64,000 nucleotides of DNA from Escherichia coli (GTDB taxonomy: Bacteria; Pseudomonadota; Gammaproteobacteria; Enterobacterales; Enterobacteriaceae): NCBI GenBank assembly GCA_032372955.1, contig GCA_032372955.1_4725.1. One strand, 5' to 3'. The notes beneath the pieces were generated by a model that did not search any database, had not been told where the DNA came from, and saw only the letters and a list, made by a program, of their open reading frames with translations. This document shows, piece after piece, positions 9,650 to 38,320 of the stretch; positions within the stretch are counted from its first letter, which is position 1, and each line of letters opens with the position of its first letter. The position numbers and the translations under genes were made by a program.

Positions 9650-9735
9650 GGTAACGCGAATATTTTCCGTTAGTGCAAGGTGTCTCGCTTCGGCGGGATG
9701 CCTTGCATGCTGAGCGATAACTCAGCCGGAATCCA

Positions 9736-9763: not shown

Positions 9764-9814
9764 GGTAGACGTCATAGAATACGTTTTAACAGGGAACCGC
9801 GAAAAGAGGTTGTT

Positions 9815-11401: not shown

Positions 11402-11402
11402 A

Positions 11403-12989: not shown

Positions 12990-12995
12990 TCCATA

Positions 12996-13018
12996 GGTCC
13001 CCTGTTGTAGGGGGGACC
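12996..13018 (+). terminator. GC-rich stem-loop
   Basis: GGTCCCC / GGGGACC inverted repeat 7 nt after stop. Confidence 0.4.
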
Positions 13019-13045
13019 GTTGACGTAAAGAAAAGGAAATACAAT

Positions 13046-14326: not shown

Positions 14327-14357
14327 TGTATTAAGTCATCGAACGACGGCATAAATG

Positions 14358-14386
14358 CCCTCCCTACGCTTTACGCTGTGGGAGGG
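14358..14386. terminator. bidirectional stem-loop between convergent genes
   Basis: CCCTCCC / GGGAGGG between plus-strand stop 14326 and minus-strand stop 14392. Confidence 0.45.
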
Positions 14387-14391
14387 TTATC

Positions 14392-14745
14392 TTAAGCGCT
14401 GTAGTGGATTGTGCGGTACTGTTGTTTTAATGTGTTGATTGCGCTTGTATCGACAATCTTCATGGTTAGAACATCGGCGGTGTATTCCGTAGGGTCGCGA
14501 TAACCATTGAGTCTCATGGTTATCCAGTGCATTGGTTCACTGCCCTCACCGAGCAGAACACGGCACAATCCATAAAAGTTACCATCGAATTCGTAGGCGC
14601 GTTCGGGTGGTATGTCTATCGTAGAGACCAGTCCGGCATTTTTGAAATATTCCAGATGCATCTCAACAACGTTCCTGAAATCAAGATCGTGGATGAGGTC
14701 ATCGGGGTTTGTCTTAAGAAAGTCGTTCAGGGGCGTGTTAGACAT
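14392..14745 (-). CDS. hypothetical acidic protein (reverse strand)
   Basis: ORF track; start set to second Met with RBS GAGG. Confidence 0.55.
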   Translation of the reverse strand: MSNTPLNDFLKTNPDDLIHDLDFRNVVEMHLEYFKNAGLVSTIDIPPERAYEFDGNFYGLCRVLLGEGSEPMHWITMRLNGYRDPTEYTADVLTMKIVDTSAINTLKQQYRTIHYSA

Positions 14746-14776
14746 GACGTACCTCAATTCGATAATAGGAAGTCCT

Positions 14777-16945
14777 ATGCATTATAAAGAAAAACCTCTT
14801 TATGAATCTGTGAAGCAGGCAATCGCTGAAGGTAAAATCATTCCCATTAAACAGGAGTATACTGGCGTAGGGACTGGACTTAACGGGCTACTGCATTATA
14901 ACTCAGCACAGCGCGCTGCGATGTTTGGTGGACATCTTAGCCAAGCGTTGGTTATCAAAGATGCGAAACCGTCCCGACTGACGACGGGGATCGAATACCA
15001 GTACGGACAGAACACGTGGTCAGTAGAGTTTCCAGTCGAATCTCGCATCATAGATATCATCCCACGTTTCCAACCGGGGCATACAGCAAACAGCATCAAA
15101 ACAAACACGATGCATTACGTGCTGTATGAAAACCAAGAGGATGGTAACCGTCACGAGCTACGCTTGCTTGAAGTGCCTGAGCATCACATCATGCATCAGC
15201 AGTACGGTTTCCGTTTTCGACCAACCAACTTGTTCCATTCCCTTCGTCGAGGCCAGATCGTACCGCGATATTCTCGTTTGATGGAAAGCCCAGCGATCAA
15301 TCAAGAAACGCGCGAGTGGGGTTACGGTCGCGATTGCAAAGTGTGTTTCGGTAGCTTCTATCAATGTATCGAGGATGGTGGTGTTGCCCGTCGTGGTGTA
15401 TTGAAGCATTTCACCAGTACCGGCATTGAGAAGCGAACGATCACATCAGGTAAATCACGATACCCAATCAATCTCTACGGTGATGATGAGGTATATCAAG
15501 CAATACCCGAGAACGGTGAGCGTATTCGTAAGGATGGGTTGCTTGCCGCAACACGCGAAATCGATCCTATCCTTAGCGTTGTTGACATGATGACGTGTAA
15601 CCTTCAGCGTGTGGATTATGTTTACGACGATCTCACTTACGCTGAACCGAATGCGCGTGTAACGGATATCGATGTTGTCAGTGATCGACATCGTCGTTCT
15701 GGACGTCAAGCCCGCGAGCGTGCGATTATGATGGAAGAGAAGATGCGTCCTCCGTATCGTCAATTCCTGAAATACGAGAACGCAATCGGTTTGCTTTACA
15801 CCCGAATTCAGGATGCTGTTCGTAAGTACGAACGTGAACGCGTTGGTACGTCGATACGTCATCATCAAACGGTGATGTGGTGGTTGAACCTGGCTGATGC
15901 TGAACACGGTATTGATATCCGCAATCCTAACGGACAGCTACGTCATGTGTTACCAACCCGCGATTACCGTAAAGAGAATCTCGATGATTGGCGTGTGACC
16001 ATCACGTACACGTATGACGTTGTTCCAGGTATCGGGTTTAAATTCACCGGTATGGCGGGTGATAAATTCGTTGTAACCGACATCATGGAAGACGATGAAA
16101 TGCCGGTTGACCAATGGGGTAACGTTGCGGACTTCATGTTCGACGATAGTACGGTAATCAAAAGGATGAGTTTAAGTCGTGTTAACGCACCGTACATCAA
16201 CGGCGTTGGCGATCAGATCATGCGTGAACTGAAACCGGTGATGGATGCAGGCGATCTGGAGACCGCTTGGAACACACTGATGCGCTACTACTATATCGTC
16301 AGTCCTGAATTCGTGGAACAGGTTGTTGAAAAATACTGTATCACGGATGAGGATAAATGGGATCATTTACGGTACGTACAACGCCACGGTACGGAAGTTT
16401 ATATCCCGACGGACAGTATCGCAGCCGGTTCAGAACGTATGGAGAATCTGATTCGTGAGTTCCCGTTGAAGAAAGGTCCTGTACGGTATCGTGGACGTTC
16501 TGGGCAATGGCGGACAACCAAGAACGATATTGCGATCGGCGACACGTACATCATGATGTTGGAGAAGACGGCGAACGACTGGTCAGCTGTGGGTATTCCT
16601 AAACTGCAAGCGCACGGATTACCGTCGAAACTCAGTAATAGCGATAAATACAGTTCTCCGGGTAAAGAGCAACCGACTCGTTACTGTGGTGAATCTGAAC
16701 ATCGTGAAGTTACCGCCTTTGCTGGCGGATGGTTCGCAAGCGTCTTTATGGATTATGCGAACAATCCAAAACAGGTGGATAGCATCACTGAAAGCATCTA
16801 CGCGACCGATAAGCCGTCAGCGATTCCTATTGCGACCAACTTCGAGAAGTATCCCATTGGCGGTAACCGTGCGTTGAGGATTCTGTATCATCAGCTGAAC
16901 GTTGCTGGCGGACAAATCATCGACGCAGATGACTGCGAAAGCTAA
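14777..16945 (+). CDS. RNA polymerase beta-like subunit, C-terminal part
   Basis: SAQRAAMFGGHLSQA resembles beta RAMMGANMQRQAVP; GMAGDKFVVTDIMEDDEMPVDQWGN resembles GDKMAGRHGNKG...EDMPYDENG; start moved to ATG 14777. Confidence 0.6.
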   Translation: MHYKEKPLYESVKQAIAEGKIIPIKQEYTGVGTGLNGLLHYNSAQRAAMFGGHLSQALVIKDAKPSRLTTGIEYQYGQNTWSVEFPVESRIIDIIPRFQPGHTANSIKTNTMHYVLYENQEDGNRHELRLLEVPEHHIMHQQYGFRFRPTNLFHSLRRGQIVPRYSRLMESPAINQETREWGYGRDCKVCFGSFYQCIEDGGVARRGVLKHFTSTGIEKRTITSGKSRYPINLYGDDEVYQAIPENGERIRKDGLLAATREIDPILSVVDMMTCNLQRVDYVYDDLTYAEPNARVTDIDVVSDRHRRSGRQARERAIMMEEKMRPPYRQFLKYENAIGLLYTRIQDAVRKYERERVGTSIRHHQTVMWWLNLADAEHGIDIRNPNGQLRHVLPTRDYRKENLDDWRVTITYTYDVVPGIGFKFTGMAGDKFVVTDIMEDDEMPVDQWGNVADFMFDDSTVIKRMSLSRVNAPYINGVGDQIMRELKPVMDAGDLETAWNTLMRYYYIVSPEFVEQVVEKYCITDEDKWDHLRYVQRHGTEVYIPTDSIAAGSERMENLIREFPLKKGPVRYRGRSGQWRTTKNDIAIGDTYIMMLEKTANDWSAVGIPKLQAHGLPSKLSNSDKYSSPGKEQPTRYCGESEHREVTAFAGGWFASVFMDYANNPKQVDSITESIYATDKPSAIPIATNFEKYPIGGNRALRILYHQLNVAGGQIIDADDCES

Positions 16946-17378: not shown

Positions 17379-17419
17379 CCTCCTCCTGCCCATGTGGTGG
17401 GAGGAGGATGTTTATGCTG
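17379..17419 (+). promoter_or_regulatory. GC-rich hairpin followed by TTTATGCTG
   Basis: CCTCCTCC / GGAGGAGG stem then ATGTTTATGCTG. Confidence 0.45.
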
Positions 17420-17485: not shown

Positions 17486-17833
17486 ATGAGTGATAACGAA
17501 AATCGTTCCGTAGCAGTGAACTACGTCAACAATTTAATCTTGCAAGAACTTACTCGTGATGCAGTAAGGGCATCAAATAAGCTAGGTTTTATCAACCACC
17601 ACGGACACATCATCGACATTAACAATCCTGACTGCCAGATCGTCGACATACGCAGCCAGGTCGAACACGTCGCTAACGTCATGGTTAAAGCTGAATACTG
17701 GCTGGAAACCATGAAAGAGCATGTTATCCAACCCCAACAATTAGATATCGACGTTGATGAAATTATTGAACAAGTTGAAGAGTCGTTCAATGAACTTGTC
17801 AACCACCGTATCGAAAAAGTTTTAAAGTTTTAA
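17486..17833 (+). CDS. hypothetical protein
   Basis: ORF track frame; start moved to ATG 17486 with RBS AGAGGA. Confidence 0.6.
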   Translation: MSDNENRSVAVNYVNNLILQELTRDAVRASNKLGFINHHGHIIDINNPDCQIVDIRSQVEHVANVMVKAEYWLETMKEHVIQPQQLDIDVDEIIEQVEESFNELVNHRIEKVLKF

Positions 17834-17866
17834 ACGATTGCTAACATTCACCTGAGGAAAAACATA

Positions 17867-18229
17867 ATGAACTTAATTCGCAAATTAACACTGCAAGAAC
17901 TGGCCCGTCCAATCGGTATTGAGGCAGCACTGCATGATGAAGATAGCAATGCGCTACAAGTCGCCGTGTTTACAGCAACCACGAACTACGCTGTTGATGT
18001 AGGTACCATTGAACCCGTACGTAGTTTTGAAGAAGATGCAACCGTTATTGATACCGTTGCTCAAAACGTCGCACAGGGTTTGGTTGTACTTGACCTGGCT
18101 GGTGATGCTGGTGAAGAAGCACTGCGCGAAGCGATGGCTGATTACGCAGCTAACTGGGATACCACCGTCACAATGAAAACATTCGATGGTTCTGAAGAGG
18201 AAGATACGGAAGAAGACAGCGTAGAATAA
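17867..18229 (+). CDS. hypothetical acidic protein
   Basis: ORF track; RBS GAGGAAAAAC upstream. Confidence 0.65.
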   Translation: MNLIRKLTLQELARPIGIEAALHDEDSNALQVAVFTATTNYAVDVGTIEPVRSFEEDATVIDTVAQNVAQGLVVLDLAGDAGEEALREAMADYAANWDTTVTMKTFDGSEEEDTEEDSVE

Positions 18230-18243: not shown

Positions 18244-18280
18244 CCTCCCTCTCCCATGCGGAGGTGGGAGGGAATTATGT
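18244..18280 (+). promoter_or_regulatory. GC-rich hairpin followed by AATTATGTCG and T-rich tract
   Basis: CCCTCCCTCTCC / GAGGTGGGAGGG stem. Confidence 0.45.
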
Positions 18281-19017: not shown

Positions 19018-21024
19018 ATGATTACAACACAGACAACCACCACGAAACGTCGTGTGAGGGCACGCGAGCTTATGCATTGGCCGGTTGATGAGGTGTTCGA
19101 ATGGGCACAGCCTAATGACCGTGTGTATATCGAGATGGACGATGGCGTTCATGAATTGCGTGCACGACGCATTTTCTTTAGTTACATGCACTGGTCTGTG
19201 CATCGCATGTATCCTGAGACCCCACTAACAAAAGAGAACCTGGTTGATAAACGCAAGTTCACAGCGGGTTCATCGGTTGCGTTGCAAAGCGCAGCGTATC
19301 GTCAATGCATGTATGCTTATCCACAAGAGAATCGTGAGGTTCTCTGGAAAGCATTGTTCGATATGTTTAACAATGTGTATAACTTCTTTACGTATGCGTT
19401 GGAGGAATACGTAACAACGATTTGCGCGGACGATTTTTATCAGATTACCGTACACCCCGAAGTTAAGAAAATCATCGCCGAAGCGGAACCCACCCGCGAA
19501 GGTATCGAAAGCGCATACAAGAAACTGACAAAGGTACTGAGCACCGATAAAACGTTACACGCAAACCCTATTGCACGTGCGGTAAGAACCGAACACGTTT
19601 CGATCGGACAGGTGCTGCAGTGTATTGGGATGCGTGGATTCTTGACTGATATTAACTCCGAGATATTCCGTGACCCAGTGATGCGGTCATACGCAGCTGG
19701 TTTGATCTCTCTTCCAGACAGCTTGAAAGAAAGTCGTTCTGCGGCAAAATCGTTGCTGTTCAACAAAGAGCAGATTAAAAAGTCTGAATATTTCGGTCGT
19801 GAACTTCAGATAGCGACAGCGGTTGTACAACGACTCCATCCTGGTGATTGTGGTAGTAAAGAGACCATCCCGATGCCAATCCGTGATGAGACCGACCTGC
19901 GTGGCTTCCACGGTCGATTCATTATTCGTGACGACGGTTCGTTGGTAGCGATACAACCACACATGAAAGAATTGATCGGCACCACAGTGCGCATGCGCTC
20001 TGTTAACTATTGTCATCATCCCGATCCTGCTGGGGTATGTACGACGTGTTACGGTGAATTAAGTCATAACTTCGCATTGACTGATAATGTCGGCGACGGT
20101 GCAGCGCGTACCTGTTCGCAACAGGTAACGCAGAACATTCTTTCTACCAAACACCACGATGGTTCGTCAACGGTATCCACAGCACCAATCCCACCGGAAT
20201 ATCAACATATCCTTCGCTACAGCCAGAACATGAACGACATCAAACTCGCACGTGAGCTGAAAGGTAAACACGTGTTGATTAAGATGAAGTTAGGTCTTGC
20301 GAACATGTTGTACGACGTAGCGGAAGCGGAAGAAATCAGTTCGCTGATACCGCAACGTCTGTTTAACATGACGCTTTGCGATATGGAGATTTACGACAGG
20401 AAAGATGAAAGCTATCGTAAGCTCAAAGTCAATTTCGATTTCTGTGGTCGTCCTGTTGTACCGAGTAAAGCGTTTATCCGGTATCTCAAACGCCATAGCT
20501 GGGAAGTGACGTCTGACGGGATTGTGATTTTCGACTTGAAACATTGGGACAATTCACGTACGTTATTCCAGATGCCGTTAATCCACAAAAACATGATGGA
20601 ATACGCAAAAGAAATCGAACGTGAATTCAAATTCGGGAAAGGTTCTTTCAGTGCCGGATTCCTCTCGGAAGACGAAGCAACACCGGAAGAAGTTGCAAAC
20701 GTGCTGTACTATTGGCATCGCCTGTGTGCTCAGCGTCTGCGAATGAACCTTTCGCATCTCGACGTTATTCTCTACGCCAGCATGATTCGTTCACCGCACA
20801 CGAAAGATTATCGCATGCCGAAACAGGGAACAACACGATACTTCAGTACCTTCAAGAAGAACATGAACATGCGCTCCTTGAGTATGAAGTTCGCTCACCA
20901 AGAGCAGCTGGATGCGTTCCAAAACCCGAACAGTTATATCCCAACCATGAAGCCGGATCATCCGATCGACTACATGCTGTTACCGCGTAAAGAACCTAAA
21001 CCGGAGGATGTAATCACGTTATGA
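19018..21024 (+). CDS. RNA polymerase beta-prime-like subunit, C-terminal part (tentative)
   Basis: QCIGMRGFLTDINSEIFRDPVMRSYAAGL resembles beta-prime GMRGLMAKP...NFREGL region preceding the bridge helix; weak overall. Confidence 0.45.
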   Translation: MITTQTTTTKRRVRARELMHWPVDEVFEWAQPNDRVYIEMDDGVHELRARRIFFSYMHWSVHRMYPETPLTKENLVDKRKFTAGSSVALQSAAYRQCMYAYPQENREVLWKALFDMFNNVYNFFTYALEEYVTTICADDFYQITVHPEVKKIIAEAEPTREGIESAYKKLTKVLSTDKTLHANPIARAVRTEHVSIGQVLQCIGMRGFLTDINSEIFRDPVMRSYAAGLISLPDSLKESRSAAKSLLFNKEQIKKSEYFGRELQIATAVVQRLHPGDCGSKETIPMPIRDETDLRGFHGRFIIRDDGSLVAIQPHMKELIGTTVRMRSVNYCHHPDPAGVCTTCYGELSHNFALTDNVGDGAARTCSQQVTQNILSTKHHDGSSTVSTAPIPPEYQHILRYSQNMNDIKLARELKGKHVLIKMKLGLANMLYDVAEAEEISSLIPQRLFNMTLCDMEIYDRKDESYRKLKVNFDFCGRPVVPSKAFIRYLKRHSWEVTSDGIVIFDLKHWDNSRTLFQMPLIHKNMMEYAKEIEREFKFGKGSFSAGFLSEDEATPEEVANVLYYWHRLCAQRLRMNLSHLDVILYASMIRSPHTKDYRMPKQGTTRYFSTFKKNMNMRSLSMKFAHQEQLDAFQNPNSYIPTMKPDHPIDYMLLPRKEPKPEDVITL

Positions 21025-22595
21025 AGTTAGCTCGTATCGACGTCTTCTCGCATGGCATGAGGCTGAGCGGATACGGACTTCGATTTGCCCATCTTATCGG
21101 CCATTACCTTCGAGACCGTTGTTTGCATCTGAGGAAACGGCGTGACCCTCGTACACGGAGAATGGTTACCGATACCATAAACACGTATGCCGCGGCAAGA
21201 AGCGATTATAGCGAGGTATACTTACTCCGCGAACAGTTGAAATCGTTTTTGGATTTTATCTTTTCCCGAGGGATACGAAAAGAGTGGTTGGAAATCGTCT
21301 ATCACGATCCGGTACCAGGTAAGGAAGTGGAGTTCGTAAAGAAATGGAAGTTTCCATGGCGTGAAGATCAGCAAGAATGGTTGGAGTACATGGACGGGGG
21401 TAAGGATACCCCCTTCAGAATGAGCCTAAACACCGCTCAAACGGGGTCGGGTAAAACAGCCATGTCTCAGGAGATTACCTTCCGACGCGGTGTACGGACG
21501 GGCATCATTCTGTCGCCGAGATACATGCCAGGCTGGCGAAGCTCACTACTGAACTTCTTCGGAATGGAACCAGGGGACGTTATCGAGATACGCGGGAACG
21601 CTAAGGAGGATCCACCGCATCCCGACATTCCTCGTTACAGTATGTTGGAGTTTCAAACCTTGGTTGAACAAGGTGAACTCGACTTCAAAATCGCATTGTT
21701 CTCCTTGAACATGTTCCAACGTTATATTGCGGACTACGAGAAGAATAACTGCGTTGCGCCATATGCCTTTCATCCCGCTGAGTTTTGGGAAAAGACCGGC
21801 ATAGGTTTGCTGATTCATGACGAGTGTCACGAAGCATTGCATTTCTTGTTTAAGGTCAAGTGTTACGCCAATATTCCGGAAATCATTTATCTGTCGGCAA
21901 CAGCGGTATCCGATGATCCGTTTATCGAACAGATGCTGTATTTGATGTATCCGAAAGAAGCCCGTTATGCGAAAGGCGAATACAAGAAATACATTGCGGT
22001 AAATGCGGTAACGTACCGACTACGCAGTACAGATAAAGTCAGATACAAAGGGTTTGGTGGAGCTTATTCGCACACGATATTCGAACAGTCTATCATGAAG
22101 AACAAGCAACTCAAACTCGCGTATTTTAACTTCATCTATACCGTTATTATCAAGGGTTTCATGAACCAGTATCAGGAAGGTATGAAGATGCTGGTGTATT
22201 GTGCGACCGTTGATATGTGTAAGTCGTTGTCGCATTATCTCAGTGAACGTATTCCTGAGCTAGAGATCGGTCCTTATACTGCTGAAGAAGATTTCATGGT
22301 CTTGCTGGATAACGATATTAGCGTTACGACAGTGAAATCGGCAGGTACCGGTATCGACCTTCCTGACTTGGTGATGACGTTCATGACGTTAGCGATGGGG
22401 TCACGAACCGGCAACATTCAGGTGTTGGGACGACTGCGTCAGCTGAAAGGGAAGTTTGAAGGAATGACGCCAACGTTCTGGTATCTGGTATGTACTTCTA
22501 TCGAAGCGCACCGTAAATACCATCAGCGCAAGGTGGAGTTCTTCAGCGACAAAGTGCTTACCCAGCGTGTTATCGATGAAGATTTTGAATTGTAA
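21021..22595 (+). CDS. SF2 DEAD/DEAH-box helicase
   Basis: Walker A TGSGKTAMS and DEAH-like LLIHDECHEA; ATGA start/stop overlap with upstream gene. Confidence 0.65.
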   Translation: MKLARIDVFSHGMRLSGYGLRFAHLIGHYLRDRCLHLRKRRDPRTRRMVTDTINTYAAARSDYSEVYLLREQLKSFLDFIFSRGIRKEWLEIVYHDPVPGKEVEFVKKWKFPWREDQQEWLEYMDGGKDTPFRMSLNTAQTGSGKTAMSQEITFRRGVRTGIILSPRYMPGWRSSLLNFFGMEPGDVIEIRGNAKEDPPHPDIPRYSMLEFQTLVEQGELDFKIALFSLNMFQRYIADYEKNNCVAPYAFHPAEFWEKTGIGLLIHDECHEALHFLFKVKCYANIPEIIYLSATAVSDDPFIEQMLYLMYPKEARYAKGEYKKYIAVNAVTYRLRSTDKVRYKGFGGAYSHTIFEQSIMKNKQLKLAYFNFIYTVIIKGFMNQYQEGMKMLVYCATVDMCKSLSHYLSERIPELEIGPYTAEEDFMVLLDNDISVTTVKSAGTGIDLPDLVMTFMTLAMGSRTGNIQVLGRLRQLKGKFEGMTPTFWYLVCTSIEAHRKYHQRKVEFFSDKVLTQRVIDEDFEL

Positions 22596-22663: not shown

Positions 22664-23557
22664 ATGTCACAAGTAAGAGGCGTGAAACAAATCGCCAATT
22701 TAATGATGTTAAGTGGTGAGACACAGCAGGAACGTGAGCTGGTCTTCTTTGGTAAACTGGCTGAAGACGGTGTTGAACGTCTTCGTCAAGTCGCATCAAA
22801 AATCGAACATATGGTGCAACATCAATGGTTGTTTGATAACACAGCCGTTGGTGGTGTGAAAGGTCAGGTGCGCGCACGTGCGATACAGATCGATAACGAA
22901 GAACCGAAATACATCATGACTACGAAGGTGTATCGCGGTCCAGGTGATGCAACGGAAAGCGAAGTCGAAATTCCGGTCGAGATGTTTGACGCGATCGAAC
23001 GTATGGCTCCTGAAGGCCAAGCGAAAACACGTTACACCGTAGAAAGCGCTGATGGTCTGGCATGGGAAGTTGACGTCATCTATACACGAGACCACCAGGT
23101 TGTTGAGTGGACGAAGATCGATATTGAAATTCCGGCTGGAACTTATCTTCGTGAAAATCCGACGTTGCCTGAAGCGTTGAGTGATGTGTTTGTGCAGATG
23201 ATCGATCGTCCTCACGCAAAACGTACGGATGAAGAGAACGCTATTCTTGACGATCTGTTCAAGAACAAATTCTACATCAAGAACGATAAGGTTGTGGTGA
23301 GCAAACTTCCTGAAGGGTTTGAACGCTTTGTTGATCCTAAGGTCGTCATTGAAATGCTGATGCCTGCCATCGAACCTCTCGTAAATATGATTCCAGCGTT
23401 AAGCTACAACGAGAAGTATTTTGATTTCGATGAAGAAGGTCAGCTGAAAAGCGCTTTACAAGAACTCAAGCATGCCGCACTCAGTGTCTTACGTTTAAGT
23501 AAGAAGAACAACGAAGAGTGTGATTGCGACCAAGATAAGAATGGAGAAAATGAATGA
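22664..23557 (+). CDS. hypothetical protein, possibly CYTH-like (triphosphate tunnel) fold
   Basis: Alternating charged motifs ERE, RAR, EVEIP, EVDVI, DIEIP suggest CYTH-like strands; weak. Confidence 0.6.
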   Translation: MSQVRGVKQIANLMMLSGETQQERELVFFGKLAEDGVERLRQVASKIEHMVQHQWLFDNTAVGGVKGQVRARAIQIDNEEPKYIMTTKVYRGPGDATESEVEIPVEMFDAIERMAPEGQAKTRYTVESADGLAWEVDVIYTRDHQVVEWTKIDIEIPAGTYLRENPTLPEALSDVFVQMIDRPHAKRTDEENAILDDLFKNKFYIKNDKVVVSKLPEGFERFVDPKVVIEMLMPAIEPLVNMIPALSYNEKYFDFDEEGQLKSALQELKHAALSVLRLSKKNNEECDCDQDKNGENE

Positions 23558-23892
23558 ACGTACAACAAATCTGTTTAATCGATGATCAGTTCAGTGAAAT
23601 TAACGGTGAGCGTTACAATGTTGTAAGCTGGACGCTTTCGATGGTCCAGGCTGCTGAACAATTCCCGATGGACAAACACAGCCCTGAAGCGTTCCGCGAT
23701 GTCTATAAACAAACCCAGCTGGTTGACCGTAAACTACCCGAAGGTTACGACGACGAGAAACTACTGAACGATATTAAGCGTGCGTTCGCCTTACACATGC
23801 TAACCTTAACCGAAGACGATCCTTTAGAAATCCCTGACGAGTGGCTTATCTACGATATGGAAGCCTACTTCATGAAAGAACTCTGGTTCTAA
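23554..23892 (+). CDS. hypothetical protein
   Basis: ORF track; overlaps upstream stop. Confidence 0.6.
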   Translation: MNVQQICLIDDQFSEINGERYNVVSWTLSMVQAAEQFPMDKHSPEAFRDVYKQTQLVDRKLPEGYDDEKLLNDIKRAFALHMLTLTEDDPLEIPDEWLIYDMEAYFMKELWF

Positions 23893-23909
23893 ATTAAATT
23901 GACATAAAC

Positions 23910-23966
23910 CTTCCTCCCCGCCCGTTATGGGTAGGGAGGAAGATATGCTAACTATTTTTTTTTTTA
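23910..23966. terminator. bidirectional terminator (hairpin plus T12 tract)
   Basis: CTTCCTCCCC / GGGTAGGGAGGAAG stem then ACTATTTTTTTTTTT; lies between convergent genes. Confidence 0.55.
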
Positions 23967-25415
23967 CTCGGTGAAGTGTGGTTTATAACCAGCCTGCCAT
24001 GCGGCGGTCATGGCGTCGTAGTTGATGTGTGAAGTGCCTGCCGGGAATGTCCAACCACTCAGATCCTGATTGAACGCGAAGCACCCAGACAACATATTGT
24101 TTGCATTCTTAACAGACGAAACATCCCACGAACCGATCGGTTGGTTGAATGTAGCGCAACCGTAGAAGAGGTCCTTCATTGAAGTAATGTTGCGGGTGTT
24201 CCATTTGGTGATGTTCACGTCGTTAATAACGCTGCATCGCGTAAACATACCTTCTAACGATGTCCAGTATGCCGGGATATAATCGGGAACCTTAGTTAAA
24301 CTGTTCGCCGCAAGGAATGATGGGGCCTTAGGTAATCCGTTGTTCCAGTCAACGATTTCAGTGATGTTACCACCGGTGAAGCTTTGCTGTACCTCTGTAT
24401 CTTCAACATTGGTAGGGGTACCCGTAGCGACGATCGTACGTTCCGTAGTGTCCGCATAAGTGTGCCGATATTCATTATCGCCTGAGTCCTGCGTCGTCTT
24501 ATTCCCATCACCCCAATCGATATTGACATTTGTCCAACCATCTAATGACAATATAATGCTGCCGCCTTTTGTTTTAAGAACGTATTGGATTGGTTTAGGT
24601 GAAGCGTGACCAACAACCATAGCACCCTTAAGGCTACCGATAACCCAATCTTTCTTGGTGGTTACCAGTAACTCGGCGTCACCGTATGACCGCACCTCTA
24701 CTCTACGAGCGTCTTCGCTTCCGTTAATTGTCTGCATTGCTTGTTGCATTTGTTCGCTGGTAATATCACCATAACGAACCATGACGTTCAGGATATTCTG
24801 GAAGTACGCAGCGTCAAGGACACCTTCAGTTGTTTCGGCATTTCCGTTTTCGCCGATAACCGAGGTTGTTGCTAACAGTAACGAACCAGATGTGTCAGCT
24901 TCAACGCCATCCAGATAAACCAGATTCGTAAGATTGGTTTGCTTGATGATCGTAATCAAGCTCAACGTATCGTTAGCGATATTGAACTGAAGATTACCAG
25001 CCCAAACATAAGACGTGTTTGCAACCGGAACCGTAATGTCTTTAATACCGGTGTCTTCGAACGTAATCTGCTTATTCAGCTCGGATTCGAGGAAGTCGAC
25101 GGTTGTGTCGAATACCAATCCGTAACGTTCAGCGATCGTGTTGATGATATCCCTTACGGCGGTATCATTTTTAACGATAACCCGTAACGGGATCCCAGTG
25201 AAGTTTTTAGCGATGTCTCGACGGATATAGGTCAGGGACTGCTCGTTAAAGTAACGGCTAGCATCGTTCGGTTTGATCGTAACAACAACCGTTCCGGGCA
25301 CTTCGCTTACCGGTTCAGTTAGTTCAAATTTTACGTCGTCTAATGTCAGCTGTAAGCTGTTTTTGCTATTTACTAACGCGAGAAGTTCGTCTTTCCAGCT
25401 TTGTTTGAGTTTCAT
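23964..25415 (-). CDS. DUF285/BspA-type repeat protein (reverse strand), possible virion or host-interaction protein
   Basis: C-terminal repeats FYGCATFNQPIGSWDVSSV and GCFAFNQDLSGW. Confidence 0.55.
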   Translation of the reverse strand: MKLKQSWKDELLALVNSKNSLQLTLDDVKFELTEPVSEVPGTVVVTIKPNDASRYFNEQSLTYIRRDIAKNFTGIPLRVIVKNDTAVRDIINTIAERYGLVFDTTVDFLESELNKQITFEDTGIKDITVPVANTSYVWAGNLQFNIANDTLSLITIIKQTNLTNLVYLDGVEADTSGSLLLATTSVIGENGNAETTEGVLDAAYFQNILNVMVRYGDITSEQMQQAMQTINGSEDARRVEVRSYGDAELLVTTKKDWVIGSLKGAMVVGHASPKPIQYVLKTKGGSIILSLDGWTNVNIDWGDGNKTTQDSGDNEYRHTYADTTERTIVATGTPTNVEDTEVQQSFTGGNITEIVDWNNGLPKAPSFLAANSLTKVPDYIPAYWTSLEGMFTRCSVINDVNITKWNTRNITSMKDLFYGCATFNQPIGSWDVSSVKNANNMLSGCFAFNQDLSGWTFPAGTSHINYDAMTAAWQAGYKPHFTE

Positions 25416-25514
25416 TTATTCTGCCTTATTAAATAAGTACAACGCATATACGTCATACGATCTTGCAACAAATACAGCATAAAGCTCTGCATGATGTCAG
25501 GTAGAGCTTCTTAA

Positions 25515-27596
25515 TCACCATTCCAAGAACGCAGGTCGTGGTTTAATATCGTATTCCGTGGTGTTTACGGTAACGTATTGATCGTATCCTTCCATCGCCA
25601 ACGTTTCTTGCAAGTTAACATCATCTTGCTTGTTCACAACATATTTGACACCCGTGATTTCTTCAACAAGCTGTCGACTTAACTCCATGATTTCGTGGCT
25701 ACGTGTAGAAACGTTACCCTCGCTTCCCGTATCTAACATGAAACGATAAATCCGAACAGGTTGCGTTTGCCCTACACGGTCAAGACGGCTGATGGCTTGG
25801 ATTTCATCGGATGAACGCCATGGGTTGTTCAGGAAAAGACCGACATTACACATCAGCATCGGAACCCCTTCAGCTAAGCTATCAAATGTTGCGATAGCGG
25901 GACCGCTGTCAGGATCATCGCGTAAGCGAGCAAGTATCTGGTTGATGTTCTTGTTGGTCTTCCCGTAAATGGGTTCAGGTAAGAAACCCGCATCACGAAG
26001 CATGTTGTCGACGCGCTCAACCACCTGAACGTACGACGTGAAGATCAACACTTTGGCTTCAGCGTTGTTGATGTACCCTTCGAAGTCGATGTACTCCACC
26101 ATGTCGACATGACACCGAATGCGGGCTGCACCTAGAACACGGGCCAACGCTTCACCCTGAATTTTCAACCCAACGTACTTGATGACACTCTTGGCGTCTT
26201 TGAAAGCAATCCTTAAATCGGAAGGAAGAACCGGCATGATAGAACGTTTTTCAAACGCATTGCAGAACATCGCATCTTCTTTGTCTCTGACGGGATCGTA
26301 ACCTTTCTGGAAACGAGCGACGATCGATTCGTATCGAGATAGCTCTTTACGTTCTCCGTCGGTACGAATAGTCTTACGATAGTAGTCCAAGGCGTCATCA
26401 AAAATCTTTCTGTAGTGTCCCCAGTTATCCTTGTAATACTTCGCCCGATCGCGTACAAATATCGCCATGTCGTCGCGGATACTCGAGATGGTATAATCGC
26501 TGCCGTTAGGGAGCTTCACGTAAACATCCTGAACTTCCGGTCGGGTTTTACGATAAGCTTCTTTAGGTACAACATGCATCATGAACCCAAGACGATGTCT
26601 GAGGATATCGTTAGCGCGACTGCTGGTTAAACCGTAAATCGCTTTGAAGCTATCGACCACCTGTCCTTGGAACATCGGGTCGATACAACCTAAACATGGG
26701 ATCATCTCAGAACCCATCTGTTTAACGGGCGTACCCGACATAAACAAGACATGCACATCCGCATTCATGGTCTGACGCATCGTCTGTACGAGATCAACCA
26801 ATCGTTGGGAACGTTGGCTGTTCTTGTCGTTGAAGTTATGGCTTTCGTCAACCACGATCAACACGCGCTTCGCTGTGCGTTTATGCTTGATCATTACATC
26901 GTTTAATAAACCCATCGACTCGTAATGCAGAAAATAATACTTATCGCTTTTCTGCAACTGTGATGGTGGCATTGTATCTGACCAGAACGCGGTTTCTGTT
27001 GCGGGGTCAACGATGGCTTTGTTTACATCGGATTGCCATGCTGAACGCATGGTGTTCTTAGGACAGCAGACCACAAATACATCGACGTTCATTGCGGCGC
27101 TTAAAGCCAATGCGGTGATTGTTTTACCGGCACCAGCACCCATCGCACACACGTATCCTTTCAGTCGGTATTTAGGTACGTTACGGTTATAGATGTCGAT
27201 AAACTCATCTTGATAATCGAACAGGGAGAGCGTTAGCATTTTGTTCATGCGTGCTTTATCGAGGATTGCAGGTTGTTCGATTGTGGTATTTTGCAGCCAC
27301 GTTTCCTGCAGCAGTACCTCAATAAGGTGTTTCAGCATGCGTTTGTTACTGCGGGTATTCTTTGCTTCGATGATCGTTTCGAGAATATAAACGAAATCGG
27401 GAAGGTAAAAGTTGTGGAGACTGAGTCCACTAGAAGAGAAATTACGAAACATATGTTTCATAAATCGGGAGGTACCCCATATTCGCTGAATGTCATCTGA
27501 AAGACGCCAGGCATCGATACCCCCGATATGCACGGTGTTGTTACTCTGATTTTTAACCGCTATTCGGTTCATTAAACGATTGATTCTATCCAACAT
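25515..27596 (-). CDS. SNF2-family helicase/ATPase
   Basis: DExH box VVDESHNF, motif III FMSGTPVKQ, motif VI QAISRLDRVGQTQPVRIYRF; start set to internal ATG (MLDRIN). Confidence 0.7.
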   Translation of the reverse strand: MLDRINRLMNRIAVKNQSNNTVHIGGIDAWRLSDDIQRIWGTSRFMKHMFRNFSSSGLSLHNFYLPDFVYILETIIEAKNTRSNKRMLKHLIEVLLQETWLQNTTIEQPAILDKARMNKMLTLSLFDYQDEFIDIYNRNVPKYRLKGYVCAMGAGAGKTITALALSAAMNVDVFVVCCPKNTMRSAWQSDVNKAIVDPATETAFWSDTMPPSQLQKSDKYYFLHYESMGLLNDVMIKHKRTAKRVLIVVDESHNFNDKNSQRSQRLVDLVQTMRQTMNADVHVLFMSGTPVKQMGSEMIPCLGCIDPMFQGQVVDSFKAIYGLTSSRANDILRHRLGFMMHVVPKEAYRKTRPEVQDVYVKLPNGSDYTISSIRDDMAIFVRDRAKYYKDNWGHYRKIFDDALDYYRKTIRTDGERKELSRYESIVARFQKGYDPVRDKEDAMFCNAFEKRSIMPVLPSDLRIAFKDAKSVIKYVGLKIQGEALARVLGAARIRCHVDMVEYIDFEGYINNAEAKVLIFTSYVQVVERVDNMLRDAGFLPEPIYGKTNKNINQILARLRDDPDSGPAIATFDSLAEGVPMLMCNVGLFLNNPWRSSDEIQAISRLDRVGQTQPVRIYRFMLDTGSEGNVSTRSHEIMELSRQLVEEITGVKYVVNKQDDVNLQETLAMEGYDQYVTVNTTEYDIKPRPAFLEW

Positions 27597-27631
27597 AATC
27601 GCGCTCGATTTAATAGAATGTATGATAAAAA

Positions 27632-27660
27632 CTCCTCCCCACACCTTTCCTGGGGAGGAG
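27632..27660. promoter_or_regulatory. GC-rich hairpin in divergent intergenic region
   Basis: CTCCTCCCC / GGGGAGGAG inverted repeat. Confidence 0.35.
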
Positions 27661-27736
27661 GCCGGGGATGTCCCTTAAAATGACGTCATTCGACAATCCA
27701 TAAAATACGATGGGCATCGAAACGGACCAACACAAA

Positions 27737-27762
27737 TCCTTTCACGGCTATATTACTTACGT
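27737..27762 (+). promoter_or_regulatory. putative early promoter TTTCACGGCTATATTACTTA
   Basis: Identical 20-mer core to copies at 4459 and 57151. Confidence 0.45.
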
Positions 27763-27804
27763 GGGTAAAGAAAATTTATTAATAGATTCAAAGAGGTACG
27801 TGCG

Positions 27805-28491
27805 ATGAAATCTTTATATTCGTTGGATTGTTTAAATTTCTTATCTCAGGAAACACGCGCTGAAGTAATTGAAAATATTCGGAAGAACGATCTTGCCCAT
27901 CAAGAAGAACATGTGCTTGCTGTTGTTGAACTGGCAAATGAACTTGCTGATGTGGTTGGTATCATCAAGCCCACGGAACGTCGTCGTCTATTAACGGCTG
28001 CTTTTATGCATGATATCGCTTGCCACGAAAACAGAACATACCACCACCTTATCGGGGGTATTCGTGCGTCGGTTATACTGCTTCGTAACGAGCAGCATAT
28101 TTTCACACCGGAAGACATCGAGGAGATACGCGTACTTATTGCTGAGCATCGTGCGTCGTATTCTGGTCCACGTAGCTCGGTTGCTTCTCAGGTGCTTCGT
28201 CTGGCGGATATGGGTCGTCTCGATAGCGAACGTTTTGGTATCCGTGCAATCGAACATCGTTACGGTCAGATGAGCAAAGAGTTCGCATTACAGGAAACCG
28301 CCGACTATCTTATTTCTAAATTTGCGCCTGATGGCTACGCTTGGATTACGTATCCGGCGTTAGGTCAGCAACTTTATATGAAAGAGATTGCGGTGATTAA
28401 ATCGCTCTGTGCGGATCGTGATAAACTCATTGCTTATTTGGATGATGTTTATACGTATGTTGAAAAGAAACATGGTGAAATCATGTGTTAA
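27805..28491 (+). CDS. HD-domain phosphohydrolase
   Basis: His...HD signature (EEHVLAV ... FMHDIA). Confidence 0.55.
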   Translation: MKSLYSLDCLNFLSQETRAEVIENIRKNDLAHQEEHVLAVVELANELADVVGIIKPTERRRLLTAAFMHDIACHENRTYHHLIGGIRASVILLRNEQHIFTPEDIEEIRVLIAEHRASYSGPRSSVASQVLRLADMGRLDSERFGIRAIEHRYGQMSKEFALQETADYLISKFAPDGYAWITYPALGQQLYMKEIAVIKSLCADRDKLIAYLDDVYTYVEKKHGEIMC

Positions 28492-28513: not shown

Positions 28514-28996
28514 ATGAGTATCGTTGATTTAACATTAACAGAAGTTGGTGATGGTATTGAGGTTTCGATGAAAACCTCCGACGATCGCACCGTTGTTGCT
28601 AAACTGGAAGAAACCCTGTACGGCAATTACGTGGTGGGCGTTTCAGGGAAGGTGAGTATGTATCGCCTGGCTGGTATTTTAAGCGTCTTTGATGGGGGAT
28701 TGCTGCCGTCCGACCAACTCGAGCTCCAGAACAAATTGATCGACAATGACTTCTACACGGAAAATGTGAAAGTCTTTGGTTACAGCATGATGGGTGGTGT
28801 ATTTAGCGCCGCGACGAACACGCTTAACTTCGGTACCCAACAACTGATTCAGTTCAGTATCGAAAAGGGTAAACTGAAAACGGCGTGGAAAGGCAGCGCT
28901 GCATTCACACCAACCGATCTTCTGCTTACTTCCGCAGAACAGCATTTAAAAGCAAGTAAATCGGGTCGTGCGTTTCTGGAGCAATTAAATCAATGA
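28514..28996 (+). CDS. hypothetical protein
   Basis: ORF track. Confidence 0.6.
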   Translation: MSIVDLTLTEVGDGIEVSMKTSDDRTVVAKLEETLYGNYVVGVSGKVSMYRLAGILSVFDGGLLPSDQLELQNKLIDNDFYTENVKVFGYSMMGGVFSAATNTLNFGTQQLIQFSIEKGKLKTAWKGSAAFTPTDLLLTSAEQHLKASKSGRAFLEQLNQ

Positions 28997-29550: not shown

Positions 29551-29560
29551 TCATTAACCA

Positions 29561-29587
29561 CCCTCCCTTCGGGGAGGGTTTATGCTG
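29561..29587 (+). promoter_or_regulatory. GC-rich hairpin followed by TTTATGCTG
   Basis: CCCTCCC TTCG GGGAGGG then TTTATGCTGCG. Confidence 0.5.
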
Positions 29588-35995: not shown

Positions 35996-36036
35996 CCCTC
36001 CTCCTTCCCTGATGGGTTGGAGGAGGGTTATGTTCG
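35996..36036 (+). promoter_or_regulatory. GC-rich hairpin followed by TTATGTTCG
   Basis: CCCTCCTCC / GGAGGAGGG stem. Confidence 0.45.
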
Positions 36037-38278: not shown

Positions 38279-38291
38279 GTTGATTGATGGA

Positions 38292-38320
38292 GCCTCCCGT
38301 AATGGGAGGCTTTTATGCTG
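38292..38320 (+). promoter_or_regulatory. GC-rich hairpin followed by TTTTATGCTG
   Basis: GCCTCCC GTAAT GGGAGGC then TTTTATGCTG. Confidence 0.5.

Follow-up and report, generated by a model that had tools for sequence, protein, structure and literature searches.

A strand-reversed gene pair in a Goslar-like phage

Why should two genes run backward within a long block of plus-strand genes, and why should one of them encode BspA-type repeats and the other an SNF2-family ATPase? The question is raised by a window of 64,000 nucleotides, the whole stretch of DNA analysed here, in which the initial annotation had marked a strand-reversed pair; two minus-strand open reading frames within the plus-strand block, at 23964-25415 and 25515-27596, bear this out. 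Across 23500-28000 the window shows 96.6% nucleotide identity to Escherichia phage Goslar with gene order unchanged, and as a whole it corresponds to Goslar 106,967-171,232. Judged by these comparisons, the source is a nucleus-forming jumbo phage and a close relative of the E. coli phage Goslar, and the two minus-strand genes are identified by sequence as orthologues of Goslar gp161 and gp160, respectively. The genes concerned are:

23964-25415, minus strand: virion protein gene, 483 aa, Goslar gp161 orthologue
25515-27596, minus strand: SNF2-family ATPase gene, 693 aa, orthologue of Goslar gp160, phiKZ gp203 and RAY gp131
27805-28491, plus strand: HD-domain hydrolase gene (Pfam HD), gp159 orthologue, first gene of the downstream early unit

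The backward pair is a known and conserved combination of a virion helicase and a fibre-type virion protein with a swappable tip, and it is expressed late; the observation is genuine but largely explained already. We consider it likely that the region is a conserved late cassette of two virion-protein genes lying antiparallel in a long early block, with the mode of expression and the gene roles proposed below. The identities, synteny, motifs, leucine-rich-repeat (LRR) fold and variability pattern come from this analysis, and virion presence and nucleus-dependent expression from the data of others on Goslar orthologues that are 95-99% identical. All experimental evidence was obtained with Goslar, phiKZ and RAY, the present phage being known from its sequence.

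Late expression within an early block

In published Goslar RNA-seq, knockdown of chimallin changed gp160 by a log2FC of -5.1 to -5.8 and gp161 by -4.8 to -6.1, with the major capsid protein at about -4. This is contrasted by gp106-159 and gp162-186, which remained between -1.3 and +1.4; gp159 itself belongs to the early class (log2FC about +1). The two reversed genes are thereby the only nucleus-dependent (late) genes among ~80 early genes. Reversed genes are not alone in virion association: high-copy virion proteins are also encoded by the gp158 and gp168 orthologues, which are plus-strand and early-class.

We propose that the virion RNA polymerase would transcribe the plus-strand neighbours straight after injection from TATATTAC-type promoters, and that the minus-strand pair would remain unexpressed until the phage nucleus has formed and the non-virion polymerase is available. 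Early transcription would be kept out by the opposite orientation together with phiKZ-type hairpin terminators, of which there would be three: a bidirectional one at the 3' end of the pair, an intergenic one and a third immediately ahead of the helicase gene.

Conservation of the reversed module

The initial annotation had called the pairing of a repeat protein with a chromatin-remodeller-like ATPase unexpected, which does not hold. Gene order around the pair is identical in four Goslar-like genomes, including Goslar and two more distant ones, and the helicase runs backward relative to its neighbours in seven of the eight chimallivirus lineages checked, as seen in phiKZ, Noxifer, RAY, Eowyn, Proteus phage 10 and Vibrio phage 2 TSL-2019. 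The exception is Ralstonia phage RP12, whose helicase is co-oriented with its neighbours, so reversal is not obligatory. The helicase is followed by zero to two variable genes, and this slot holds different genes in different genera: phiKZ gp203-202-201 are all annotated as structural, the Noxifer module consists of the helicase, gp316 and the virion structural protein gp317, and the Eowyn passenger gp055 is a DUF7941 protein. The phiKZ (gp201-gp203) and Noxifer (gp315-317) modules share with the present one a leading helicase gene, virion structural protein genes after it, the strand opposite to flanking early/middle genes, a bidirectional hairpin-TTATG end and an adjoining early TATATTAC promoter for the divergent neighbour. 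They differ in that their passenger genes are unrelated in sequence to the one found here and, in phiKZ, in that three genes are tightly packed without an internal hairpin.

It had also been suggested that the island might be variable, in which case a bacterial-type BspA surface protein could have been inserted horizontally beside an unrelated ATPase. DUF285 repeats are indeed widespread in bacteria, with many database copies labelled bacterial BspA, the gene after the helicase varies by genus, and close relatives carry very divergent alleles in place of the repeat protein's distal part. However, the 'bacterial' labels trace to phage contigs of ~235-245 kb within bacterial assemblies, DUF285 domains are frequent in jumbo phages (113 phage records match), the GC content of the pair (0.43-0.49) equals that of its flanks, the repeat protein begins with a DUF7941 module specific to chimalliviruses, and a reversed helicase module is common to phiKZ. 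Acquisition of the whole cassette is thus highly improbable and largely refuted by synteny, GC content and the DUF7941 N-terminus. The pair itself is conserved in the Goslar clade with no sign of insertion, and what varies is the downstream slot and, in the repeat protein, its distal two-thirds. The conserved synteny and the virion-component status of the repeat protein therefore essentially dispose of the island idea within the Goslar clade.

Terminator-type hairpins and promoter motifs around the pair

The non-coding elements in and beside the conserved late cassette are as follows:

23903-23907, minus strand: TTATG after the hairpin, canonical 3' element of the terminator motif, ending the late unit
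23908-23944, both strands: phiKZ-type terminator hairpin, plausibly bidirectional, 12-bp stem CTTCCTCCC.../...GGGAGGAAG, between the gp162-like and gp161-like genes, which converge here
23955-23965, plus strand: T11 run (A11 on the minus strand, abutting the TAA stop), 10 nt downstream of the hairpin
25443-25459, minus strand: CGTATGACGTATATGCG, conserved block preceding the start codon of the gp161-like gene; candidate for a promoter or 5'-UTR element
25474-25512, minus strand: intercistronic hairpin then TTATGCTGT, terminator-type element; a terminator is annotated here in Goslar
27625-27661 (hairpin 27631-27661), minus strand: terminator-type hairpin (CTCCTCCCC / CCTCCTCCCC...GGGGAGGAG) then TTTTTAT, ending 28 nt upstream of the helicase ATG
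27698-27705, minus strand: TTTTATGG, candidate late start site of the helicase gene for nvRNAP (TATG, as in the phiKZ consensus), within a perfectly conserved block
27741-27759, plus strand: TTCACGGCTATATTACTTA, early promoter motif (virion RNA polymerase type), 46 nt ahead of the HD-hydrolase gene

The experimentally mapped, conserved intrinsic terminator of the phiKZ type reads 5'-BCCYCCCCHWWDGGGRRGGBYTTATKYYGT-3' (Putzeys et al. 2024, PMC10914365). The left-boundary hairpin shares its pyrimidine-rich 5' arm, its GGGRRGG 3' arm and the TTAT(G) that follows, but has a longer 12-bp stem with a 13-nt loop and an extra T11 tract on the plus-strand side. Eight such hairpins lie in the window, both island boundaries included, and CCTCCC...GGGAGG is found at 8 sites there versus 0 expected. 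Folding energies for the left hairpin are -26.1 kcal/mol (plus strand, z = -4.1) and -28.9 kcal/mol (minus strand, z = -5.1), values matched by 0 of 200 shuffled sequences, and the hairpin is kept in Goslar and in the relatives L010 and L011, with its inner part inverted in L011. Behind it, the minus strand reads TTATG and the plus strand ATATGC, and the former element (GGTTTATG) is invariant in four Goslar-like genomes. From these features bidirectional termination appears plausible. In RAY, Proteus phage 10 and phiKZ the corresponding module ends with the same layout. A simple terminator scan missed this hairpin because the T-run begins 10 nt past the stem. The run, given as T12 in the initial annotation, is T11, and its last two T with the next A make up the TAA stop codon of the 483-aa gene; its counterparts at the equivalent junction are A9 in RAY, A13 in Proteus phage 10 and A10-12 in L010 and L011. 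It probably reinforces termination of plus-strand early transcripts.

Between the two genes, the hairpin stem carries compensatory changes in L011 (AGCTCT/AGAGCT to AGCCCT/AGGGCT), and by analogy with the phiKZ nvRNAP consensus the TATG of TTATGCTGT could be where late transcription of the gp161-like gene starts. The CGTATGACGTATATGCG block is nearly invariant in four genomes although the coding sequence downstream diverges to 60%. The right hairpin is also kept in four genomes, the only change being one at the loop edge in L010, and is annotated as a minus-strand terminator in Goslar; we propose that it acts as an insulator or a leader structure. The hairpin in front of the helicase gene has the opposite orientation in phiKZ and is missing from RAY and Eowyn, and an insulator role would therefore be clade-specific at best. 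No late promoter for the pair could be identified with confidence. The early promoter that had been noted in the divergent region beside this hairpin is present, but it serves the plus-strand HD gene and not the pair. This 19-mer, TTCACGGCTATATTACTTA, has three exact copies in the window where 0.02 would be expected, and each of them is on the plus strand; it is TATATTAC-type, matching the phiKZ and 201phi2-1 early consensus, and the same early-promoter arrangement adjoins phiKZ gp204.

The helicase

The helicase reading frame was listed by program as 25515-27644. Its start is most likely the ATG at 27596, giving 693 aa, as this is the annotated start in Goslar and is kept in three further relatives; the alternative GTG at 27644 falls within the hairpin. 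Pfam detects ResIII, SNF2-rel_dom (31.9 bits, cutoff 24.9) and Helicase_C, and the best matches among solved structures (PDB phmmer) are SWR1, ISWI, SNF2 and a Sulfolobus Rad54-like protein. The protein is 98.8% identical to Goslar gp160 and 98.7% to its L010 counterpart, and orthologues in 202 chimallivirus records are 34-39% identical over at least 93% of the length. Full-length orthology, the same Pfam domain set, virion packaging and backward orientation are shared with phiKZ gp203, RAY gp131 and Goslar gp160, with no substantive difference, and on this evidence the gene is assigned to the conserved virion-associated SNF2 helicase of chimalliviruses. Goslar virions contain gp160 at ~10.6 copies (15 peptides; Goslar Table S4), RAY gp131 shows capsid-like localisation, and phiKZ gp203, which undergoes N-terminal proteolytic processing, is packaged in the head, DNA-associated and non-essential in the laboratory.

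We suggest that ~10 copies are packaged with the DNA and most likely act on the encapsidated or newly injected genome, in handling or transcription of incoming DNA. Phage P1 packages DarB in its virion to protect incoming DNA, and by comparison the helicase could be mainly an injected anti-defence factor with the fibre gene as functionally unrelated cargo. The Vibrio phage 2 TSL-2019 orthologue is annotated 'DarB-like antirestriction', phiKZ gp203 is a packaged protein that remains with the DNA and is dispensable in the laboratory, and there are weak domain-level matches to defence-system SNF2 helicases. We regard this as unlikely, as a Pfam search found no methyltransferase or other DarB-specific domain, the PADLOC matches are to generic SF2 lobes at 20-40 bits, and near-universal presence across chimalliviruses with different hosts better fits a core virion role.

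A virion protein with a conserved anchor and a hypervariable distal part

The gp161-like protein is predicted to comprise an N-terminal DUF7941 module (Pfam, aa 4-185, 88 bits, cutoff 27), a helical and beta-sandwich middle and a C-terminal DUF285 LRR solenoid (aa 385-456, 77 bits, cutoff 25). Its gene falls into two parts:

24876-25415, minus strand: conserved DUF7941 anchor/oligomerisation module, codons 1-180, 86-99% identity, 18 orthologues
23967-24875, minus strand: hypervariable mosaic distal part, codons 181-483 (middle and LRR), 32-99% identity

The initial annotation took the repeats as typical of bacterial surface proteins. The signature FxGC..FNQ..W and the predicted solenoid are indeed those of BspA/TpLRR proteins, but this protein is phage-encoded, is fused to a phage virion module, has only about three to five repeats and, unlike those proteins, shows no visible signal peptide or cell-wall anchor in its sequence. 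It has a BspA-type domain but is no bacterial surface protein. Goslar virions contain ~111 copies of gp161 (range 74-174; 27 peptides, 53.8% coverage; Goslar Table S4), a number similar to that of other DUF7941 paralogues. The present protein has 95.5% amino-acid identity to gp161 with equal length, position and orientation, and 16 of the 22 substitutions fall within the last 200 residues and reach the extreme C-terminus.

According to the Goslar structure preprint, DUF7941 is a chimallivirus-specific family with ten paralogues in Goslar, and one of them, gp22, forms filaments when purified (Basu et al. 2026, bioRxiv 10.64898/2026.04.21.720040). The preprint describes gp161 as a virion-borne DUF7941 protein with an LRR/beta-helix domain and proposes, as to location and adhesin role, that it belongs to flexible baseplate-anchored host-recognition filaments; its baseplate map showed no density for gp161 or any DUF7941 protein (bioRxiv 10.64898/2026.04.21.720040). 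In line with that preprint, we suggest that the conserved N-terminal module would join DUF7941 filaments emanating from the peripheral baseplate, and that the distal beta-sandwich and LRR part would bind host surface structures and be exchanged among related phages.

The protein might instead be internal or capsid-associated, or a co-purifying contaminant. It is absent from the Goslar cryo-EM model, the same preparation contained nucleus and PhuZ contaminants, and the gene adjoins that of a helicase packaged in the head and lies a long way from the clusters of tail and DUF7941 genes. Its peptide and copy numbers, like those of other DUF7941 paralogues, make this distinctly unlikely, as do the modelled position of phiKZ DUF7941 protein gp127 at the peripheral (outer) baseplate, a 584-aa paralogue, 47% identical, within the tail-fibre cluster, and a conserved anchor with a mosaic distal part of raised dN/dS, the signature of an exposed receptor-binding protein.

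The exposed-fibre reading is consistent with the variability pattern. In tailed phages, modular tail fibres and receptor-binding proteins combine a conserved N-terminal virion attachment with a variable distal part exchanged by recombination. The gp161-like protein shares this pattern but differs in its chimallivirus-only DUF7941 anchor, in a TpLRR/BspA-type LRR distal domain in place of a trimeric fibre tip, and in a gene location outside the tail gene cluster. Codons 1-180 have a dN/dS of 0.04 versus Goslar (0.03-0.04 for helicase and anchor) and a dS versus L010 equal to that of the helicase; codons 181-483 have a dN/dS of 0.50 versus Goslar, and versus L010 their synonymous sites are saturated (pS 0.77; flanks dS 0.35). 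The L010 orthologue is only 60% identical, against 84-99.8% for the flanking genes. This variability of residues 181-483 resembles that of receptor-binding fibres. The available portions of Basu et al. 2026 contain no description of such clade-wide modular hypervariability. New here is that, among Goslar-like phages, the gp161 anchor is kept while the distal part is hypervariable and mosaic, its middle and C-terminal segments assorting independently.

The minus-strand gene pair lies in a close relative of phage Goslar

The two minus-strand genes that the initial annotation had picked out are present as ORFs with Pfam domains, and they encode the orthologues of gp160 and gp161 of Escherichia phage vB_EcoM_Goslar (gp numbers are those of Goslar unless another phage is named). 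The pair and its control elements are listed below.

Features of the minus-strand pair and its flanks
23908-23944, both strands: left-boundary hairpin with a 12-bp stem, from folding (minus-strand motif 23944-23903)
23955-23965, plus strand: T11 run, overlapping the TAA stop of the 483-aa gene
23964-25415, minus strand: gp161-like gene, 483 aa (ORF and Pfam)
25512-25474, minus strand: intercistronic hairpin, its stem differing from the CCYCCC type, followed by a perfect TTATGCTGT
25515-27596, minus strand: helicase gene (gp160 orthologue), 693 aa from the ATG at 27596 (ORF and Pfam)
27631-27661, minus strand: hairpin upstream of the helicase (27661-27625 with its tail), followed by TTTTTAT and ending 28 nt before the ATG
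27741-27759, plus strand: early-promoter motif TTCACGGCTATATTACTTA, a 19-mer pointing at the HD-hydrolase gene

When positions 23500-28000 were compared with a phage collection by megablast, the sole match was Goslar, at 96.6% identity over the full length, and where the two window ends and the middle were compared, identity to Goslar was 94.7-97.9%. The window ends map to Goslar 168,042-171,232 and 106,967-109,462; the window is therefore the reverse complement of approximately 107-171 kb of Goslar and comes from a close relative. Judged by these matches, the source is a nucleus-forming jumbo phage of the family Chimalliviridae. Goslar-like phages are found mostly as ~235-245 kb contigs in isolate assemblies of E. 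coli, Salmonella, Shigella and Enterobacter. The taxon labels of eight proteins (P0003, P0006, P0017, P0019, P0022, P0026, P0052 and P0056) are misleading because their source is likewise ~235-245 kb phage contigs inside bacterial assemblies.

We conclude that the pair consists of a virion helicase and a DUF7941-LRR fibre protein, and that it is real, ordinary for the family and essentially explained already: the two genes have been documented in Goslar, as have late expression and occurrence in the virion, and phiKZ has the helicase module too. All wet-lab evidence on the two proteins comes from orthologues in Goslar, phiKZ and RAY, not from the window phage.

Two other parts of the window differ from its relatives. 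Positions 1-2500 align in three pieces (85% of the query) across 3.19 kb of Goslar, in a region where Goslar carries a group I intron with an HNH/NUMOD1 endonuclease near the RNA polymerase beta subunit and nuclear shell genes; intron or endonuclease content seems to differ between the two phages. The gp164 orthologue (21021-22595), a second SF2 helicase adjoining an RNA polymerase subunit gene, has 91.2% nucleotide identity to Goslar compared with 95-97% in its neighbours, with nearly all differences synonymous (116 codons). In two Goslar-like contigs carrying the same pair, L010 (9823-12084) and L011 (9806-12067), the gp164 orthologue has 753 rather than 524 aa owing to a ~230-aa insertion between residues 145 and 146, which in L010 has no match in a Pfam search. 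The locus may be a site used by an intein or a homing element, with tracts of co-conversion.

The SNF2-family helicase is an orthologue of chimallivirus virion helicases

As listed, the helicase gene begins at GTG 27644, a codon within a hairpin. We use instead the ATG at 27596, which is the start annotated in Goslar and is kept in three more relatives. The protein is 98.8% identical to Goslar gp160 and matches SNF2-rel_dom (31.9 bits, cutoff 24.9), Helicase_C (30 bits, cutoff 23.5) and ResIII (47.4 bits, cutoff 22.5) in Pfam. Its translation contains GAGAGKT and VVDESH, the Walker A and DExH box of a bipartite SF2 core. By sequence, the closest solved structures are SWR1, ISWI, SNF2 and SsoRad54 (a Sulfolobus Rad54-like protein). 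No accessory chromatin-reader domains were detected in Pfam, including matches at E up to 10, and at that threshold the N-terminus gives only a sub-threshold HTH_60 match. The description as chromatin-remodelling type is a label for the family and does not state a function.

Full-length homologues (at least 80% of the length, 34-39% identity) were found in 202 phage records, all of them chimallivirus-type jumbo phages. The domain set is identical to that of phiKZ gp203, and full-length orthology places the protein in the chimallivirus virion-associated helicase group of phiKZ gp203 and RAY gp131. In Goslar virions gp160 was detected by mass spectrometry with 15 peptides, at ~10 copies per virion (Basu et al. 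2026, bioRxiv 10.64898/2026.04.21.720040). RAY gp131 is annotated as a virion-associated SWI/SNF family helicase and shows capsid-like localisation, while phiKZ gp203 is processed proteolytically, packaged in the head and co-pellets with DNA, and still tolerates transposon insertions. By analogy with what has been suggested for RAY gp131, the helicase might be a DNA-bound translocase that arrives with the genome and aids unpacking or transcription in the early infection vesicle; we hold this tentatively, as a reading with somewhat less than an even chance of being right. The main alternative is an anti-restriction role like that of P1 DarB, against which PADLOC returned only generic SF2 matches for the helicase. 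The SNF2 ATPase is conserved, packaged and DNA-bound, and yet dispensable.

The DUF7941-DUF285 protein is orthologous to a Goslar virion protein

The 483-aa protein has 95.5% amino-acid identity to Goslar gp161. Residues 4-185 match DUF7941 (PF25613; 88 bits, cutoff 27) and residues 385-456 match DUF285 (PF03382; 77 bits, cutoff 25), and the DUF285-type repeats noted in the initial annotation (FYGCATFNQPIGSW, LSGCFAFNQDLSGW) are seen in the translation. The repeat part is predicted to fold as an LRR solenoid. Between these domains, residues 185-350 match nothing in Pfam at E up to 10. The protein also matches PHROG 1037 and 2935, both described as virion structural protein. An AlphaFold2 model has low confidence over residues 1-180, with pLDDT below 50 at 130-175, which is compatible with, though no proof of, the disordered linker that in DUF7941 proteins would follow an N-terminal globular domain and mediate head-to-tail oligomerisation. 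'BspA family surface protein' was rejected as an identity, being a domain-level database label only: the hydrophilic N-terminus MKLKQSWKDELLALVNSKNS is part of DUF7941, neither a secretion signal nor an envelope anchor was found in the protein, and the gene is phage-borne. PADLOC defence-system profiles gave no match for the repeat protein.

DUF7941 is restricted to chimalliviruses, as is consistent with its occurrence in this Goslar-like window, and gp161 is one of ten DUF7941 proteins in Goslar (Basu et al. 2026). In gp86, gp92 and gp161 the DUF7941 module lies at the N-terminus, ahead of carbohydrate-binding, glycoside-hydrolase or LRR/beta-helix domains. When purified, gp22, another DUF7941 protein, assembles into long filaments, and in the authors' proposal host recognition involves a 'cloud' of DUF7941 filaments attached to the peripheral baseplate (Basu et al. 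2026). Mass spectrometry of Goslar virions recovered gp161 with 27 peptides and 53.8% coverage, at ~111 copies per virion, and gp161 was not located in any map (Basu et al. 2026). For phiKZ, the virion atlas has gp127, also a DUF7941 protein, modelled in the outer part of the baseplate. The initial annotation had considered a DUF285 protein beside an SNF2 ATPase unexpected; with both orthologues being Goslar virion proteins, the combination is an ordinary one for the family.

In Goslar the pair is a late unit within an early block

In Goslar RNA-seq a non-targeting control was compared with chimallin knockdown, which halts infection at the early, virion-polymerase stage. Under knockdown gp160 falls by log2 -5.1 to -5.8 and gp161 by -4.8 to -6.1, a drop like the one for the major capsid protein (about -4) and also for the baseplate genes. 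The adjacent gp159 and gp162 are unchanged, and every gene of gp106-gp159 and gp162-gp186 stays within -1.3 to +1.4. Expression class shifts roughly 30-fold or more across the island boundaries, which supports, indirectly, transcript ends at the predicted terminators there. Besides the pair there is no nucleus-dependent (late) unit in the roughly 64 kb of the window, where the other strand holds nothing more than the pair and two small early genes.

The reversed orientation of the helicase recurs across the family. In phiKZ (L008) the helicase gp203 and the virion structural genes gp202 and gp201 form a minus-strand trio between plus-strand runs. The reversed set consists of helicase, small gene and virion structural protein in Noxifer, helicase and one gene in RAY, helicase and two genes in Eowyn (the second a DUF7941 protein), and the helicase alone in Proteus phage 10 and Vibrio phage 2 TSL-2019; Ralstonia RP12, whose helicase is co-oriented with its neighbours, is the sole exception among the lineages compared. 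The reversed arrangement is thus old. The passenger genes 3' of the helicase are unrelated to each other: Pfam detects no domain in phiKZ gp201 or gp202, neither resembles the repeat protein by BLASTP, and RAY gp130 has just a sub-threshold Gly_rich_2 match in Pfam. In RAY, Proteus phage 10 and Eowyn no homologue of the window flanking genes was found within 6 kb of the helicase.

An inserted island had been suspected for this region. We find the same pair in Goslar, L010 and L011, a GC content equal to that of the flanks, and a reversed helicase in phiKZ as well. Passengers are unrelated, flanks are not conserved between genera and GC is flank-like: the region is a late cassette that is conserved but varies in its second position, and not an insertion. 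What stands of the suspected variability is that the second position differs between genera and that the gp161 tip is mosaic.

Small proteins of unassigned function encoded in the plus-strand early block, the orthologues of gp158 (28514-28996) and gp168 (~17867-18229), were also considered. Goslar gp158 and gp168 rank in the top ten by abundance among unmodelled virion proteins, with >200 copies, and are unaffected by chimallin knockdown. Because these early plus-strand genes also encode abundant virion proteins, virion membership alone does not explain the reversal, whereas late, nucleus-dependent timing does. We explain the odd strand layout as that of a late unit temporally insulated within an early block, and this may help in reading other jumbo-phage genomes.

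Predicted terminators bound the pair

Long-read transcriptomics of phiKZ defined a conserved intrinsic-terminator motif in which TTAT comes after a hairpin, and reported bidirectional terminators specifically between convergent genes (Putzeys et al. 2024, PMC10914365). Phage 201phi2-1 has a motif much like it. The window contains this motif as eight CCTCCC...GGGAGG hairpins where none is expected, most of them followed by (G)TTTATGCYG. For the hairpin at the left boundary of the pair, folding energies are -26 to -29 kcal/mol (z = -4.1 and -5.1), a stability that none of the shuffles reaches. It is canonical on the minus strand (CCYCCC...GGGRRGG, followed by GTTTATG) and near-canonical on the plus strand, where it is followed by ATATGC and, 10 nt later, by the T11 run. 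The same order of stop codon, A-run, GCATA(A/T), hairpin and TTATG is seen where the reversed modules of RAY (A9) and Proteus phage 10 (A13) end, and in phiKZ it recurs minus the A-run. A bidirectional terminator predicted at the left boundary is thus well supported by homology; of the 'hairpin/T12 bidirectional terminator' originally described, the hairpin holds up on folding, bidirectionality is backed by homology, and the run is T11, not T12. In L011 (8470-8510) the inner stem and loop of this hairpin are inverted relative to the window (23908-23944), Goslar and L010, so that on its minus strand L011 matches what the window has on the plus strand, with the outer stem and flanking GGTTTATG unchanged.

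Within the pair, the intercistronic hairpin is backed by compensatory stem changes in a relative. The hairpin upstream of the helicase, in the divergent region where it had been reported with an early-promoter motif, is kept in four Goslar-like genomes with one loop-edge difference, in L010. It presumably acts as an insulator or leader structure, although the equivalent phiKZ hairpin faces the opposite way. A generic scan for sigma-70 promoters and terminators gave nothing above shuffles and missed the boundary hairpin; such a scan is unsuited because the phage uses its own polymerases.

Early-promoter and candidate late start sites

The early-promoter motif is likewise present in the divergent region. 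It fits the early consensus of phiKZ, TATATTAC, as well as the longer form of 201phi2-1, has the extended context of a promoter for the virion RNA polymerase, and lies 5' of the HD-hydrolase gene, which is early-class in Goslar RNA-seq. The 27741-27759 motif therefore belongs to this plus-strand gene and not to the island. The 19-mer TTCACGGCTATATTACTTAnGTG occurs as three exact copies (0.02 expected in the window) and one variant, all plus-strand and intergenic; TATATTAC alone is not significant (4 sites, 2.3 expected) and becomes so only within the extended 19-mer. The variant, a slightly divergent fourth copy TTCACGCTTATATTACC at 9742-9760, lies upstream of a large plus-strand ORF, listed as 9680-11401, the true start of which is probably further downstream.

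Transcription by the phiKZ non-virion polymerase begins at the G of TATG, and conserved candidate TATG late start sites are found 5' of both island genes (27698-27705 and 25474-25481). No late promoter was definable beyond these candidates. ATCGTAT was considered as one and rejected: it lies upstream of both island genes but is frequent throughout the genome, and 18 other late genes of Goslar lack it upstream. On the plus strand, a hairpin followed by TTATGC(T/C)G occurs at 3585-3616, 17381-17416, 18246-18279, 29560-29584, 35999-36032, 38290-38317, 46761-46801, 53610-53634 and 60467-60498. The TATG after these hairpins is identical to the core of the phiKZ late promoter for the non-virion polymerase, and their 3' arm GGGAGG resembles a ribosome-binding site. 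Goslar-like phages may thus couple a terminator with a late start site and a translation signal. The 350-nt divergent region between phiKZ gp203 and gp204 (17769-18118) includes a ~200-nt GC-rich structured stretch without an annotated gene, which may be a small RNA. Its equivalent is absent from the window, and an Rfam search of the window returned no known RNA family.

A fixed anchor and a swappable tip in the gp161-type protein

The pair is present in identical synteny in L010 and L011. Relative to the window, thirteen neighbouring genes of L010 are 84-99.8% and the helicase 98.7% identical, whereas identity is just 60% for the gp161 orthologue; the L011 values are 93% for the helicase and 70% for the gp161 orthologue. 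Across 18 orthologues, residues 1-180 keep 86-99% identity while the middle region ranges over 32-98% and the LRR part over 46-99%, and these last two assort independently. The gp161-type gene is by far the most variable in its neighbourhood, with a sharp anchor/tip boundary. Compared with Goslar, dN/dS is 0.04 for the anchor, 0.03 for the helicase and 0.50 for residues 181-483. Compared with L010, the synonymous distance of the anchor equals that of the helicase (0.35) and the distal part is saturated (pS 0.77, dN 0.55), which indicates that a distant allele has replaced the distal part, the breakpoint lying near residue 180.

The fixed anchor with a swappable tip is what is new in this analysis. 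Such variability is what an exposed receptor-binding protein would be expected to show; it supports, without proving, the proposal that DUF7941-LRR proteins contact the host, and makes the gp161-type gene a candidate handle for host-range engineering in nucleus-forming E. coli phages. More speculatively, and in our estimate rather improbably, the slot 3' of the helicase could be a conserved 'cargo slot' in which chimalliviruses keep accessory virion proteins under strictly late, nucleus-dependent expression, with terminators insulating it on either side, and which is filled in the Goslar clade by a modular adhesin whose DUF7941 anchor is fixed and whose beta-sandwich/LRR modules are swapped near residue 180 among co-circulating phages. 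If so, the gp161-type protein would be one of the main determinants of host range across E. coli, Salmonella, Shigella and Enterobacter, and its gene a natural site for retargeting Goslar-like phages.

A 584-aa paralogue of the gp161-type protein (47% identity) sits in a tail-fibre/DUF7941 cluster, and is likely the source of the gp161-type gene via duplication. In L009, ENA contig NODE_6_length_241206, this DUF7941-DUF285 paralogue is clustered (7001-15755) with a 175-aa DUF7941 protein, an 834-aa Phage_tail_fib protein and a DUF7941-NCTSP TIM-barrel protein.
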